IMG/VR virus record: IMGVR_UViG_2541047861_000004
DNA length: 4,923 nucleotides
Reading direction: 5' to 3' (one strand)
DNA from: a virus
Taxonomy: Duplodnaviria > Heunggongvirae > Uroviricota > Caudoviricetes
The first letter of the stretch is position 1, and every line of letters begins with the position of its first letter. Position numbers and translations under genes: made by a program. Shown here one piece after another: positions 1 through 4,828 of the stretch. The notes beneath the pieces are model-generated. The model saw only the letters and a program-made list of their open reading frames with translations. It was not told the origin of the DNA and made no database searches.

Positions 1-2
1 GC

Positions 3-197
3 ATCAATGGTCTTTACAAAGCGGAGGTAATACACCGTAAGAGCTGGAAAAACCGTGCAGAAGTGGAACTGGCCACACTCACGTGGGTGGACTGGTATAA
101 CAATCGACGATTGCTGGAAAGGCTGGGCCATACTCCTCCGGCAGAAGCAGAAAAAGCTTATTATGCTTCCATCGGAAACGATGATCTGGCAGCCTGA
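3..197 (+). CDS. IS3-family transposase OrfB, C-terminal fragment (5' end outside window)
   Basis: Translation INGLYKAEVIHRKSWKNRAEVELATLTWVDWYNNRRLLERLGHTPPAEAEKAYYASIGNDDLAA, stop TGA at 195-197. The WxxWYNNRRxxxxLG motif is typical of the C-terminal end of the integrase-like catalytic domain of IS3-family transposases. Confidence 0.85.
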   Translation: MNGLYKAEVIHRKSWKNRAEVELATLTWVDWYNNRRLLERLGHTPPAEAEKAYYASIGNDDLAA

Positions 198-485: not shown

Positions 486-508
486 AAGAGGGGGTTATTA
501 AGGCGTGA
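380..508 (+). pseudogene. ybcO: ybcO-like (DUF1364) 3' remnant with no start codon
   Basis: Frame-2 translation [42 protein letters not shown] ; the last ~27 residues match my recollection of the YbcO C-terminus. In-frame stop at 377-379 and no ATG/GTG start between it and the conserved part. Its stop (506-508) overlaps the rusA GTG start (505-507), as in the DLP12 ybcO-rusA junction. Confidence 0.45.
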
Positions 509-867
509 ATACCTACAGCATCACATTACCCTGGCCTCCGAGCAATAATCGCTATTACCGCCATAATCGCGGGCGCACGCACGTCAGCGCAGAGGGGCAG
601 GCATACCGCGATAACGTCGCCCGAATCATTAAAAACGCAATGCTGGATATCGGCCTGGCTATGCCTGTGAAAATCCGCATTGAGTGCCACATGCCGGATC
701 GCCGTCGCCGTGACCTGGATAATCTGCAAAAAGCCGCTTTTGACGCACTCACTAAAGCAGGTTTCTGGCTGGATGATGCTCAGGTCGTTGATTACCGCGT
801 TGTGAAGATGCCTGTTACCAAAGGTGGGAGGCTGGAACTGACCATCACCGAAATGGGGAATGAATGA
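505..867 (+). CDS. rusA: RusA Holliday junction resolvase (120 aa), GTG start
   Basis: Translation [120 protein letters not shown] matches RusA as I recall it. The residues I recall as catalytic (D70, D72, D91) and K76 are present at those positions. Start is GTG at 505. Confidence 0.93.
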
Positions 868-1004
868 TGTTTGAGTTTAATATGGCAGAACTTCTTCGCC
901 ACCGCTGGGGGCGTCTGCGCTTATATCGTTTCCTCGGTTCTGTTTTGACCGATTACCGAATACTGAAGAATTACGCCAAAACCCTGACAGGAACAGGAGT
1001 ATGA
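864..1004 (+). CDS. ylcG: YlcG-like small protein (46 aa), overlapping the rusA stop
   Basis: ATGATG at 864-869 overlaps the rusA stop (865-867). Translation [46 protein letters not shown], matching my recollection of DLP12 YlcG. It is below the length cut-off of the supplied ORF track. Confidence 0.7.
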
Positions 1005-1089: not shown

Positions 1090-1473
1090 ATGCGTGATAT
1101 TCAGATGGTTCTTGAGCGTTGGGGTGCGTGGGCGGCTAATAATCATGAAGATGTGACCTGGTCGTCCATTGCCGCCGGTTTTAAGGGATTAATTCCTTCA
1201 AAAGTAAAATCTCGCCCGCAATGTTGTGACGATGACGCGATGATCATTTGCGGGTGCATGGCCCGTCTGAAAAAGAACAACAGCGATTTACACGATTTAT
1301 TAGTAGATTATTATGTATGTGGTATGACATTCATGTCACTGGCAAGTAAGCATTGCTGCTCGGATGGTTATATCGGGAAAAGGTTACAGAAGGCTGAGGG
1401 CATAATTGAAGGGATGTTAATGGCATTAGATATCCGGTTAGATATGGATATCGTTGCTAATAATTCTAATTGA
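1090..1473 (+). CDS. quuD: Q-family late-gene antiterminator (QuuD-like, 127 aa)
   Basis: Translation [130 protein letters not shown] at 1090 preferred over TTG at 1075 because GGAG (1079-1082) sits 7 nt upstream of it. Position between rusA and the lysis genes, plus the Cys-rich pattern, fits a Q antiterminator. Confidence 0.85.
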
Positions 1474-1494: not shown

Positions 1495-1524
1495 TTATTA
1501 AAAATGGGGCGTGGAAACGCCCCC
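1495..1524 (-). terminator. Intrinsic terminator for the porin transcript (minus strand)
   Basis: Minus-strand RNA reads GGGGCG-UUUCCA-CGCCCC followed by AUUUUUAAUAACUUUU (6-bp GC stem at 1506-1511/1518-1523, U-tract toward lower coordinates). On the plus strand the same hairpin is followed by CAAAAUAAAGGG, so it is unidirectional. Confidence 0.65.
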
Positions 1525-1661
1525 AAAATAAAGGGTAATATATAACAGAAGGTTTATATAGTAAGAAGCAAGGTAGTGCTTCTAAAGGAAGTGGCTTGAG
1601 GGCTCCACTTATATGTTGCGGAGGCAAAGCCTCCCGCAACATATCTTTTTCGTAAGTCAGA
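1498..1661 (-). ncRNA. ipeX: IpeX-like regulatory 3' UTR of the porin gene
   Basis: About 164 nt of untranslated sequence between the nmpC stop (1662-1664) and the minus-strand terminator. The inhibitor-of-porin-expression RNA IpeX was mapped to the untranslated region between the nmpC/lc stop and its terminator in DLP12 and PA-2. Assignment is by position and established knowledge, not sequence comparison. Confidence 0.5.
1611..1650 (+). terminator. Intrinsic terminator, plus strand, downstream of quuD (tR'-like candidate)
   Basis: atatgttgcggagg-caaag-cctcccgcaacatat forms a ~14-bp stem with one bulged C, followed by cttttt (1645-1650). On the minus strand the hairpin is followed by AAGUGGAG, so it is plus-strand specific. 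Confidence 0.6.
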
Positions 1662-2744
1662 TTAGAACTGATAAACCAGACCTACAGCGACGATGTCGTC
1701 GGTATCAATACCAGCTGTTTTGGTAAACTTACTATCGTCAATTAAGTTGATTTTGTAATCAACAAAAGTGGACATGTTTTTATTAAAGTAGTAAGTAGCA
1801 CCGACATCGACATACTTGACTAAGTCTCGGTCACCATGAACACCAAGGTCTTTACCTTTTGACTGAAGGTAAGCAACAGATGGACGCAGACCGAAGTCAA
1901 ACTGATATTGTGCTACTGCTTCAAAGTTTTGTGCTTTGTTTGCAATATGGTTATTACCAAAAACGGTCATATTCTGAGTTTCAGAATATGTGGTAGCCAG
2001 ATAGATATTGTTCGCATCATATTTCAGGCCTGCAGCCCATACTTCCGCATTTTTGCCGGAGGCATTGAATTTGCTCTTACCATAGGCGACCTGACCGTCA
2101 GTGCGATCTGATTTAGCATAGGTTGCACCCACGCCGAATCCTTCATACTCATAAGTAGTGGAGAAACCGAAACCATCACCATTGGCTTCAGTTACGTCAG
2201 TGCGGTCATTTTTACCCTGATACTGAGCAGCAAAGTTCAGGCCATCGACCAGACCAAAGAAGTCGTTGTTACGATAAGTTGCAACACCAGTAGTGCGACC
2301 AGTCATGAACACATCTGTTTGGGTCCAGGTATCACCACCGAATTCTGGCAGAACGTCAGTCCACGCACCGATGTCGTATGCTACACCGTAGTTACGGCCG
2401 TAATCGATTGAGCCGTAATCACCAAATTTCAGGCCTGCAAATGCAAGACGGGTTTTGTCTTTGGAAGAACCTTGAGATTCAGCACGGTTGCCTTTGAATT
2501 CATATTCCCACTGACCGAAACCAGTCAGTTGATCGTTGATTTGGGTTTCACCTTTGAAGCCAAGACGGGCATAAGTAGTATCACCATCATCTGCATCATT
2601 AGAGGAGAAGTAGTGCTTGGCATTAACTTTCCCGTATAGATCCAGCTTGTTACTGTCTTTATTATAAATTTCAGCTGCCTGAGCAGACATCGCCATCAGT
2701 ACTGATGCAGCTACAGCAGAAATTGCCACTGTTAATTTTTTCAT
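1662..2744 (-). CDS. nmpC: Outer membrane general porin of the NmpC/Lc/OmpC family, apparently intact (360-aa precursor)
   Basis: Translation from the internal Met gives signal peptide [23 protein letters not shown] then mature [17 protein letters not shown]...; motifs [25 protein letters not shown] and C-terminal GLVYQF align with OmpC as I recall it. The ATG at 2804 in the ORF track is rejected because it would place 20 residues ahead of the signal peptide. Confidence 0.92.
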
Positions 2745-2900
2745 TGTACGCCCTTTTTTTGAACTATTATTAAAAAATGATGTCACTGCGCGATAAATAT
2801 TCATCTAATCAATGTGATTATTTCAAGATGTAAGTTTTAGTTTCTCATTTAATTTGTGAAGTAGATCTCTATTTTTATCTGAACCTTTTCTATCTAATCC
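2745..2900 (-). promoter_or_regulatory. Porin gene promoter/5' control region with OmpR-box-like motif
   Basis: AT-rich. Minus-strand sequence corresponding to plus coordinates about 2808-2827, CTTACATCTTGAAATAATCA, resembles the OmpR site consensus as I recall it (TTTACATTTTGAAACATCTA), roughly 60-85 nt upstream of the ATG. No clean sigma-70 -35/-10 pair could be fixed by eye. Confidence 0.3.
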
Positions 2901-2955
2901 TATTCATGGCTCTTGTCTGAACAAAAATAAATCTATTAGCTAATTTATATTAATG

Positions 2956-2973
2956 GCACTTATTTATAAGTGC
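2956..2973. repeat. Perfect 8-bp inverted repeat with 2-bp spacer
   Basis: gcacttat-tt-ataagtgc, about 210 bp upstream of the porin start within the AT-rich intergenic region; candidate dimeric protein-binding site. Confidence 0.5.
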
Positions 2974-3112
2974 TCTATAATTCTTTAGCTTAATTTAAAC
3001 AAACTAAAAATAACATCGGAAATTATTAACTGGTTATTTGTTGAAGTTTTCTTATGCATTTGTGGTGGTGTTTTGAACACTCGGTGGCATTCTCACAAAT
3101 ATCATTTAGTAG

Positions 3113-3126
3113 TTTACGTACGTAAA
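3113..3126. repeat. Perfect 14-bp palindrome tttacgtacgtaaa
   Basis: Self-complementary over its full length, 45 bp upstream of the 3171 terminator hairpin and about 210 bp upstream of the holin start. Confidence 0.5.
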
Positions 3127-3170
3127 AAATTGGTTATGCTGTTAAGAGTGGTTACTTCGTCACACAGCTT

Positions 3171-3203
3171 AAACCCGCCGTCGAGCGGGTTTTTCCATTT
3201 TTT
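3171..3203 (+). terminator. Strong intrinsic terminator, plus strand, upstream of the lysis cassette
   Basis: aaacccgc-cgtcga-gcgggttt forms an 8-bp stem (3171-3178/3185-3192) followed by ttttccatttttt. On the minus strand the hairpin is followed by AAGCUG, so it is plus-strand specific. Confidence 0.7.
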
Positions 3204-3332: not shown

Positions 3333-3548
3333 ATGAAATCCATGGATAAGTTAACAACGGGTGTCGCCTATGGTACCTCAGCAGGTAGTGCCGGGTACTG
3401 GTTTTTACAGTTGCTCGATAAAGTCACGCCCTCACAGTGGGCGGCAATAGGTGTGCTGGGTAGCCTGGTATTTGGCCTGCTGACGTACCTGACAAACCTT
3501 TATTTCAAGATTAAAGAAGATAAGCGCAAGGCTGCGAGAGGTGAATAA
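3333..3548 (+). CDS. essD: Class II holin (phage 21 S-type pinholin, 71 aa) with dual-start motif
   Basis: Translation [71 protein letters not shown] closely matches S21 as I recall it. Met1-Lys-Ser-Met4 dual start, two transmembrane segments, charged C-terminus. RBS gaggtgggg at 3322-3330. Confidence 0.92.
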
Positions 3549-4045
3549 TGCCTCCATCATTACGAAAAGCCGTTGCTGCTGCTATTGGTGGCGGAGCAAT
3601 TGCTATAGCATCAGTGTTAATCACTGGCCCAAGTGGTAACGATGGTCTGGAAGGTGTCAGCTACATACCATACAAAGATATTGTTGGTGTATGGACTGTA
3701 TGTCACGGGCATACAGGAAAAGACATCATGCTCGGTAAAACGTATACCAAAGCAGAATGCAAAGCCCTCCTGAATAAAGACCTTGCCACGGTCGCCAGAC
3801 AAATTAACCCGTACATCAAAGTCGATATACCGGAAACAATGCGCGGCGCTCTTTACTCATTCGTTTACAACGTGGGTGCTGGCAATTTCAGAACATCGAC
3901 GCTTCTTCGCAAAATAAACCAGGGCGATATCAAAGGCGCATGTGATCAGCTACGTCGCTGGACATATGCTGGCGGTAAGCAATGGAAAGGTCTCATGACT
4001 CGTCGTGAGATTGAGCGTGAAATCTGTTTGTGGGGTCAGCAATGA
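3548..4045 (+). CDS. rrrD: SAR endolysin (phage 21 R-type lysozyme, 165 aa)
   Basis: N-terminal signal-anchor-release segment [20 protein letters not shown], then a lysozyme domain with E35, D44 and T50 at the positions I recall for the R21 catalytic triad. Start ATG overlaps the holin stop (taATG at 3546-3550). Confidence 0.93.
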
Positions 4046-4503
4046 ACAGAGTAACCGCGATTATCTCCGCTCTGGTTATCTGCATCATCGTCTGCCTGTC
4101 ATGGGCTGTTAATCATTACCGTGATAACGCCATTACCTACAAAGCCCAGCGCGACAAAAATGCCAGAGAACTGACGCTGGCGAACGCGGTAATTACTGAC
4201 ATACAGATGCGTCAGCGTGATGTTGCTGCGCTCGATGCAAAATACACGAAGGAGTTAGCTGATGCGAAAGCTGAAAATGATGCTCTGCGTGATGATGTTG
4301 CCGCTGGTCGTCGTCGGTTGCACATCAAAGCAGTCTGTCAGTCAGTGCGTGAAGCCACCACCGCCTCCGGCGTGGATAATGCAGCCTCCCCCCGACTGGC
4401 AGACACCGCTGAACGGGATTATTTCACCCTCAGAGAGAGGCTGATCACTATGCAAAAACAACTGGAAGGAACCCAGAAGTATATTAATGAGCAGTGCAGA
4501 TAG
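4042..4503 (+). CDS. rzpD: Rz i-spanin (153 aa)
   Basis: Translation [153 protein letters not shown] is near-identical to lambda Rz as I recall it. ATG at 4042 overlaps the endolysin stop (ATGA); the GTG at 4030 is rejected. Confidence 0.93.
4262..4444 (+). CDS. rzoD: Rz1 o-spanin lipoprotein (60 aa), embedded in the +1 frame of Rz
   Basis: Translation [60 protein letters not shown] has a lipobox (VVGC) and a proline-rich mature part, near-identical to lambda Rz1 as I recall it. AGGAG lies about 8 nt upstream. Confidence 0.88.
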
Positions 4504-4534: not shown

Positions 4535-4828
4535 TTATTGTGAGCAATACACACGCGCTTCCAGCGGAGTATAAATGCCTAAAGTAATAAAACCGAGCAA
4601 TCCATTTACGAATGTTTGCTGGGTTTCTGTTTTAACAACATTTTCTGCACCACCACAAATTTTTGCTGCATCGACAGTTTTCTTCTGCCCAATTCCCGAA
4701 ACGAAGAAATGATGGGTGATGGTTTCCTTTGGTGTTACTGCTGTAGGTTTGTTTCCAACAGTAAACGTCTGTTGAGCACATCCTGTAATAAGCATTGCCA
4801 GAGCGGCAGAAAACAACATTTTTTTCAT
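4535..4828 (-). CDS. borD: Bor lipoprotein (serum-resistance-associated, 97 aa)
   Basis: Translation from the internal Met: MKKMLFSAALAMLITGCAQQTFTVGNKPTAVTPKETITHHFFVSGIGQKKTVDAAKICGGAENVVKTETQQTFVNGLLGFITLGIYTPLEARVYCSQ, with lipobox LITGC, matching lambda Bor as I recall it. AGGA lies 8 nt upstream of this ATG; the longer ORF starting at 4876 is rejected. Confidence 0.9.
   Translation of the reverse strand: MKKMLFSAALAMLITGCAQQTFTVGNKPTAVTPKETITHHFFVSGIGQKKTVDAAKICGGAENVVKTETQQTFVNGLLGFITLGIYTPLEARVYCSQ

Follow-up and report, generated by a model that had tools for sequence, protein, structure and literature searches.

We found that the minus-strand stretch behind the porin gene in the analysed DNA is almost certainly an allele of ipeX, and that the open linker of its RNA can, by prediction, pair with the translation-initiation region of the ompC mRNA. 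The analysed DNA, hereafter the window, is 4,923 nt long and covers the Q-to-lysis part of an Escherichia coli lambdoid prophage. Overall, the best explanation, to which we give a probability of about 60%, is that the ipeX allele yields an RNA from the porin transcript and that the linker of this RNA pairs with ompC. IpeX itself is a known element that has already been described, and the copy in the window is an allelic variant; the added value of the present analysis is a specific base-pairing model for this RNA.

According to reviews, IpeX is 167 nt long, was found as a multicopy suppressor of assembly-defective OmpC, lowers OmpC and OmpF, and is released from the porin transcript by processing; the reviews also describe that lysogeny by phage PA-2 lowers OmpC through the lc transcript. 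In the literature, the effect of IpeX on ompC is independent of Hfq, and some IpeX targets require Hfq. The first-pass annotation of the window had proposed that approximately 164 nt following the porin stop codon on the minus strand, ending in a clean intrinsic terminator, constitute an IpeX-like RNA, and had given a length of 167 nt for IpeX. All of this was borne out, as 1661-1498 comprises 164 nt with a terminator at 1523-1506, and position, strand, length and sequence all agree with ipeX. Specifically, ipeX is listed in a published table (PMC8313858, supplementary file 1) at NC_000913.3 574365-574531 on the reverse strand, with a length of 167 nt, the gene having been added by hand to the RefSeq GFF in that 2021 study. 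This interval opens with the T of the nmpC stop codon and closes with the terminator tail, and the corresponding stretch of the window, 1664-1498, is also 167 nt long, indicating that the 164 nt originally noted are the annotated ipeX minus the 3-nt stop codon. Alignment to the annotated ipeX, which the first-pass annotation had named as a check, gave 158 identical columns out of 168 over the full length, with 8 substitutions and 2 single-base indels between window 1664-1498 and MG1655 574531-574365, and the 3' end of the window RNA agrees with the annotated ipeX end. The 3' UTR of PA-2 lc is identical to the K-12 ipeX sequence, and the stretch in the window is 94-95% identical to both the K-12 nmpC-quuD intergenic region and the PA-2 sequence following lc. 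Note that an ipeX feature is absent from the RefSeq records of MG1655 and W3110; the MG1655 record annotates micF and micC as ncRNA genes and has none for ipeX (NC_000913.3 574340-574531). A search with Rfam 15 gave no relevant match (E <= 1) in the window or at the K-12 and PA-2 reference loci, and this result is uninformative because Rfam 15 has no IpeX model. The features of the window and of the RNA are listed in Table 1.

Table 1. Genes of the window and parts of the ipeX homologue with its predicted pairing segments.
Feature	Position	Strand	Remarks
IS3-family transposase, 3' end	1-197	+	NCBIfam E = 2.8e-11
rusA	505-867	+	
ylcG	864-1004	+	
Q antiterminator gene, quuD type	1090-1473	+	Pfam Phage_antitermQ, E = 6.7e-54
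ipeX homologue	1498..1664	-	167 nt; T of porin stop codon to terminator tail
Terminator tail	1498..1505	-	AUUUUUAA; RNA 3' end
Terminator stem-loop	1506..1523	-	GGGGCGTTTCCACGCCCC; 7 bp (6 G-C), 4-nt loop, -13.8 kcal/mol
Linker	1563-1524	-	AU-rich, largely unpaired, at most a -2 kcal/mol hairpin
Pairing block 1	1526..1534	-	CCUUUAUUU; predicted against ompC -23 to -31, 9 bp
AUUAC	1535..1539	-	looped out in the predicted ompC duplex; part of UAUUACCC
Pairing block 2	1540..1554	-	AACCUUCUGUUAUAU; predicted against ompC -7 to -21, 15 bp, one G.U
Stem-loop 3	1564..1583	-	7 bp, -7.8 kcal/mol, z = -4.7
Stem-loop 2	1589..1610	-	6 bp (8 bp in the K-12 allele), -5.4 kcal/mol, weak alone
Stem-loop 1	1611..1644		strongest hairpin, -22 kcal/mol on either strand
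A-rich 5' leader	1645..1661	-	UCUGACUUACGAAAAAG; mostly unpaired
Porin gene, nmpC/lc type	1662-2744	-	360 aa
Holin gene	3333-3548	+	
Lysozyme gene	3548-4045	+	
Rz gene	4042-4503	+	Rz1 embedded
bor/iss lipoprotein gene	4535-4828	-	last gene of the window

The porin gene upstream of ipeX belongs to the OmpC/PhoE/OmpF family (NCBIfam OmpC subfamily, 521 bits). Its minus-strand open reading frame extends over 1662..2804, the real start being the ATG at 2744 and the stop codon being the TAA at 1664-1662. The product shows 91% amino-acid identity to Lc of phage PA-2, and the region upstream of the gene is 92% identical to that upstream of lc. The gene is intact in the window; in K-12, nmpC is interrupted by IS5 58 nt before its stop codon, which places IS5 between ipeX and the nmpC promoter. 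A search of viral contigs with the porin as query returned 80 identical copies and hence no diversity. A promoter scan of the minus strand detected no sigma-70-like site from the porin to the terminator, which is consistent with IpeX being part of the porin transcript, and a terminator scan detected no second minus-strand terminator between the porin stop codon and 1523-1506. The window RNA thus shares with the IpeX of DLP12 and PA-2 its location directly 3' of the nmpC/lc stop codon, its convergence with Q, its strand, its 167-nt length (at 94% identity) and its predicted helices. It differs in the 8 substitutions and 2 indels, all of which lie outside the consensus helices, and in that the porin gene before it is intact and, over its 3' half, only 65-87% identical to lc. 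Two phage contigs (L025, 3598-4305; L242, IMG/VR contig IMGVR_UViG_2563366891_000011) have an insertion in the A-rich leader of IpeX, behind the porin stop codon and ahead of stem-loop 1. It is an IS200-like element of about 0.7 kb that encodes a Y1 transposase (Pfam E = 5e-38), and it separates IpeX from the porin transcript.

We next consider the fold of the RNA. The minus-strand RNA, taken as 175 nt, folded at -53.6 kcal/mol, compared with -31.4 ± 3.7 kcal/mol for dinucleotide shuffles (z = -5.9; none of 200 shuffles did as well), indicating more structure than expected by chance. The four helices predicted from this single sequence were recovered in the RNAalifold consensus of 21 distinct variants. 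At the 5' end, nt 1-10 of IpeX had an unpaired probability of 0.97 and nt 11-20 one of 0.4, and the linker was only partly open in silico, with an unpaired probability of 0.3-0.7. The terminator scan identified the stem GGGGCGTTTCCACGCCCC followed by ATTTTTAATA on the minus strand. As regards an Hfq-binding module, which would combine a U-rich sequence ahead of the terminator hairpin with a long U tail, the U-rich UUUAUUUU stands before this hairpin, but the tail AUUUUU has five U residues only. Variation among the alleles was concentrated outside the helices: 4 of 68 paired columns were variable, against 28 of 97 unpaired ones (Fisher p = 2e-4, with the consensus structure derived from that alignment itself), and none of the 10 differences from K-12 lies inside a helix. 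The stem of stem-loop 3 was invariant in all 21 variants, its loop alone varying, and all four one-sided pair changes were to G-U on the minus strand. Covariation support was negligible in this set of 21 distinct variants, which are 96% identical; a single compensatory change, C-G to U-A in stem-loop 1 of E. albertii, was observed, and 41 of 500 shuffles equalled it.

Some ipeX allele was found in 2,501 of 5,426 complete E. coli genomes (about 46%), with 678 records at least 99% identical to the window and 1,809 at 90-95% (the K-12/PA-2 type). The stretch is not a dispersed repeat, as carrier genomes have a median of one copy, and 36 deposited phage genomes carry it as well. When species representatives with NmpC/OmpD-like porins were compared, this UTR was present in E. 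coli and E. albertii only; chromosomal porins of genera such as Salmonella, Citrobacter and Enterobacter lacked it. In E. albertii, the homology ends directly after the terminator. The linker is the most invariant segment across the variants, E. albertii included. In comparison with PA-2, the UTR forms a conservation island: it is 92-97% identical, against 68% over the final 60 nt of the porin coding sequence, which is 93-100% identical to lc in its 5' half and 65-87% in its 3' half. A sharp mosaic boundary lies at the porin stop codon when 1662-2220 and 1498-1661 are compared with PA-2. Recombination breakpoints could be an alternative cause of the island, because the adjoining Q gene is equally similar (97% to K-12).

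Pairing was tested against the K-12 ompC, ompF and ompA leaders, the sRNA being restricted to the unpaired linker. The linker, through 1526-1554, was predicted to form 9 + 15 bp with the ompC mRNA from -31 to -7, the Shine-Dalgarno sequence included. In this predicted duplex, block 2 covers the ompC Shine-Dalgarno sequence GAGGG, and the two blocks are separated by an internal loop of 5 nt on one side and 1 nt on the other. The hybrid energy on ompC was -26.7 kcal/mol for IpeX versus -26.5 kcal/mol for the MicC 5' end. When the costs of opening both RNAs were included, the totals were -16.4 to -16.9 for IpeX/ompC, -17.6 for MicC/ompC and -18.8 for MicF/ompF. When the linker was dinucleotide-shuffled, 0-1 of 1,000 sequences reached the IpeX/ompC energy, and with a shuffled target 4-5 of 1,000 did, p-values that are somewhat optimistic because the linker was chosen after the fold had been seen; the positive controls were reached by 1 of 1,000 (MicC/ompC) and 0 of 1,000 shuffles (MicF/ompF). 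In addition, three independent sites among 92,113 genomic windows of 45 nt reached -26 kcal/mol, one of them being another porin leader, in a count that leaves out the E. albertii locus's own IpeX copy (an antisense self-match).

Both partners of the predicted duplex are conserved. The 29-nt pairing core was invariant in 19 of the 21 variants, and the change in E. albertii turns a G-C pair into G.U; for the ompC leader, identity was 99% or higher in 5,365 of the 5,426 E. coli genomes. Furthermore, nt 128-142 of K-12 IpeX (ACCCUUUAUUUUUGG) were reported to be accessible in vivo as a toehold-like region (assay cited in PMC8313858), and this region contains the 9-bp block. For a target call in that study, a predicted interaction had to involve 80% of the 15-nt region, which is probably the reason why ompC is missing from its target lists.

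The IpeX/ompC complementarity predicted here goes beyond the literature and is contrary to reviews. Reviews up to 2025, citing Castillo-Keller et al. 2006 as the primary study, deny any complementarity of IpeX to ompC and hold that the regulation proceeds without base pairing. The longest uninterrupted Watson-Crick runs in the predicted duplex are 10 and 9 nt, so that a BLAST search with 11-nt words would miss them, and this may be why the match was not reported earlier. Two broader calculations of our own were set aside. RNAduplex, when run on whole-length IpeX with the porin leaders, paired the RNAs over their full length, which is unrealistic. A windowed scan of the whole RNA, which was low-powered (its MicF/ompF positive control reached only z = -1.1), placed the best ompC match in stem-loop 1 and upstream of the ompC 5' UTR, and we rejected this match.

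For the other leaders, the picture was as follows. The linker sequence UAUUACCC can, by prediction, pair with the ompF Shine-Dalgarno region GGGUAAUA. This ompF pairing was not better than that of shuffles (about 17%), though ompF is also a reported target. A predicted accessible anti-Shine-Dalgarno seed performing better than chance was thus found for ompC and not for ompF. The shuffle test gave no significant pairing of the linker with ompA, and the leader of the prophage's own porin has no site of the ompC type. Post-transcriptional lowering of OmpC and OmpF but not of OmpA is a trait of IpeX, on which the predicted pairing, strong for ompC, weak for ompF and absent for ompA, bears indirectly.

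Comparison with known sRNAs places IpeX close to MicC in predicted target and apart from it in design. The target sites overlap (-15 to -46 for MicC; -7 to -31, predicted, for IpeX), GUUAUAU and CCUUUAUU occur in both RNAs, and the predicted duplex energies are equal. On the other hand, MicC is a stand-alone gene with its seed at the 5' end and does not cover the Shine-Dalgarno sequence, whereas the predicted seed of IpeX is internal, contains a 5-nt loop, lies over the Shine-Dalgarno sequence and resides in an mRNA 3' UTR; the two RNAs have no overall sequence homology. As for MicF, the likeness lies in the ompF Shine-Dalgarno region GGGUAAUA, which MicF covers and which UAUUACCC of IpeX can, by prediction, pair with, but the IpeX/ompF duplex is short, at -2.5 to -7.8 kcal/mol after opening costs versus -18.8 kcal/mol for MicF. 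CpxQ and SroC are 3' UTR-derived sRNAs that are processed from mRNAs. Like RNAs of this type, IpeX shares its terminator with the upstream gene, has no promoter of its own in our scan, is reported to need processing and carries a U-rich stretch before the terminator hairpin. It differs from them in being phage-borne, longer and more structured, in its tail of five U and in its reportedly Hfq-independent action on ompC. InvR of Salmonella SPI-1, which represses OmpD, is likewise a horizontally acquired RNA directed against a major host porin; however, it is an independent Hfq-dependent gene under HilD control and has no sequence relation to IpeX.

From the identity, the fold and the complementarity described above, we infer the following course of events. 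Transcription would start at the porin promoter, run through the porin gene and end at the terminator 1523-1498, and since the porin is intact in the window, IpeX should be made whenever the porin promoter fires. A stable 3' fragment would accumulate after processing. Its open linker would pair with the ribosome-binding region of ompC and block initiation, as MicC does on an overlapping site, and ompF would be hit more weakly through UAUUACCC/GGGUAAUA, perhaps with help from Hfq. In this way, the lysogen would replace OmpC and OmpF with the phage porin. OmpC is the receptor of PA-2, so that this replacement would also exclude superinfecting phage. We slightly favour the central step, namely that the linker pairs with the translation-initiation region of ompC. 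We hold at even odds the wider proposal that IpeX would be an ordinary antisense sRNA whose linker is a composite anti-Shine-Dalgarno sequence, engaging 24 nt of ompC and, more weakly, ompF. If this were true, the accepted statement that IpeX has no complementarity, which has stood since 2006, would be an oversight. A long duplex on ompC and a short one on ompF would fit the reported Hfq-independent effect on ompC together with the reported Hfq requirement elsewhere, and the pairing model, if true, would explain why the effect on ompC is Hfq-free and that on ompF needs Hfq.

Many antibiotics enter the cell chiefly through OmpC and OmpF, which also serve many phages as receptors. The mechanism of IpeX has been described as unexplained since 2006, and the ompC duplex offers a concrete model that is testable by point mutations. 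In addition, the location of IpeX behind an intact porin gene in the window leads us to expect natural expression, and not expression from a multicopy plasmid alone.

Other readings of the stretch have to be weighed against pairing with ompC. IpeX could act without base pairing, either by titrating an RNA chaperone or an RNase or indirectly via an envelope stress response, and the ompC complementarity would then have arisen incidentally, through AU-rich sequence or because the RNA descends from a porin leader. The reviews' statements on the lack of complementarity and on Hfq independence at ompC speak for such a mode of action, as do the unusual degree of structure in IpeX, with three stem-loops in addition to the terminator, and the non-significant ompF match. 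We nevertheless regard it as unlikely, given that the predicted ompC duplex equals the one formed by the validated MicC in strength and falls on the Shine-Dalgarno sequence, that at most 1 of 1,000 shuffles of the linker beat it, and that it uses the most conserved part of the RNA, which is accessible in vivo; the earlier negative statement would, moreover, be explicable by the 11-nt BLAST words.

Still less probable, in our judgement, is that the stretch is a passive 3' UTR in which face-to-face terminators insulate the porin from Q transcription and the hairpins stabilise the porin mRNA, the multicopy ipeX phenotype having no role at natural expression levels. Stem-loop 1 with the adjoining CUUUUUC does resemble a plus-strand terminator, 1523-1506 is a minus-strand terminator, and both the missing ipeX annotation in RefSeq MG1655 and the original evidence, a multicopy suppressor, suit this reading. 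Yet termination does not need a 40-nt unpaired linker, and this linker is the most invariant part of the RNA and is complementary to ompC; furthermore, PA-2 lysogeny itself is reported to lower OmpC via the lc transcript. Finally, a small protein could be encoded, either by the 58-aa minus-strand ORF at 1466-1642 that appears in the ORF listing or by a plus-strand ORF equivalent to ORF1, which the PA-2 record annotates over the 3' end of lc. We consider this extremely improbable, since the 58-aa ORF has no Pfam match, is made of hairpin arms and is shifted in frame by single-base indels between common alleles, and the ORF that corresponds to PA-2 ORF1 has, as judged by eye, about 37 codons before its stop versus 70 in PA-2. 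The absence of a Pfam match and the frameshifting indels led us to reject the 58-aa ORF as coding.

The plus strand of the same stretch has features of its own. At 1611-1651, stem-loop 1 reads as a hairpin of -21.9 kcal/mol followed by CUUUUUC (1645-1651). This structure may terminate transcripts leaving the Q gene, in which case the 3' UTRs of Q and the porin would overlap convergently by about 150 nt; a bulge in the stem kept the simple terminator scan from detecting the hairpin. Plus-strand 1526-1560 reads AAATAAAGG-GTAA-TATATAACAGAAGGTTTATA, a near copy of the ompC leader with its Shine-Dalgarno sequence, and its local alignment score against ompC was 32, compared with 17.7 ± 2.4 for shuffles. 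A relic of a porin 5' end on the plus strand was considered and rejected, as the similarity to ompC does not reach beyond the 33-nt pairing stretch. The pairing model also has a bolder extension, which is less likely: given the convergent overlap of the Q and porin 3' UTRs, a plus-strand transcript would carry a mimic of the ompC leader and be antisense to IpeX. If this extension were true, the lytic-lysogenic state could be coupled to the control of host porins.

As for the surrounding genes, the gene order of the window is that of the cryptic prophage DLP12 of K-12 and of a prophage in Nissle 1917. The order common to the window and DLP12/PA-2 is rusA, ylcG, Q, a porin on the opposite strand, holin, lysozyme, Rz and bor. 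The Q gene is 96.9% identical to K-12 quuD and convergent with the porin gene, the Q stop codon lying 25 nt from the IpeX end. Upstream of rusA, a short orphan ORF (291-485) adjoins the IS3-family transposase end (1-197), and in Nissle 1917 a truncated DUF1364 gene adjoins rusA; an IS has probably taken the place of part of the nin region in the window. Within the Q gene, the antisense minus strand has a sigma-70-like match at 1310-1339 (GTGACA-18-CATAAT), which is reminiscent of PaQ of phage lambda and may also be a chance match. The plus strand also has a promoter-like site at 2953-2981 (ATGGCA-17-TATAAT), approximately 200 nt upstream of a strong terminator-like hairpin at 3171-3192 (AAACCCGCCGTCGAGCGGGTTT followed by a T run) that lies directly before the holin gene, and the layout of 2953-3192 as a whole resembles a late promoter with a Q-dependent terminator.
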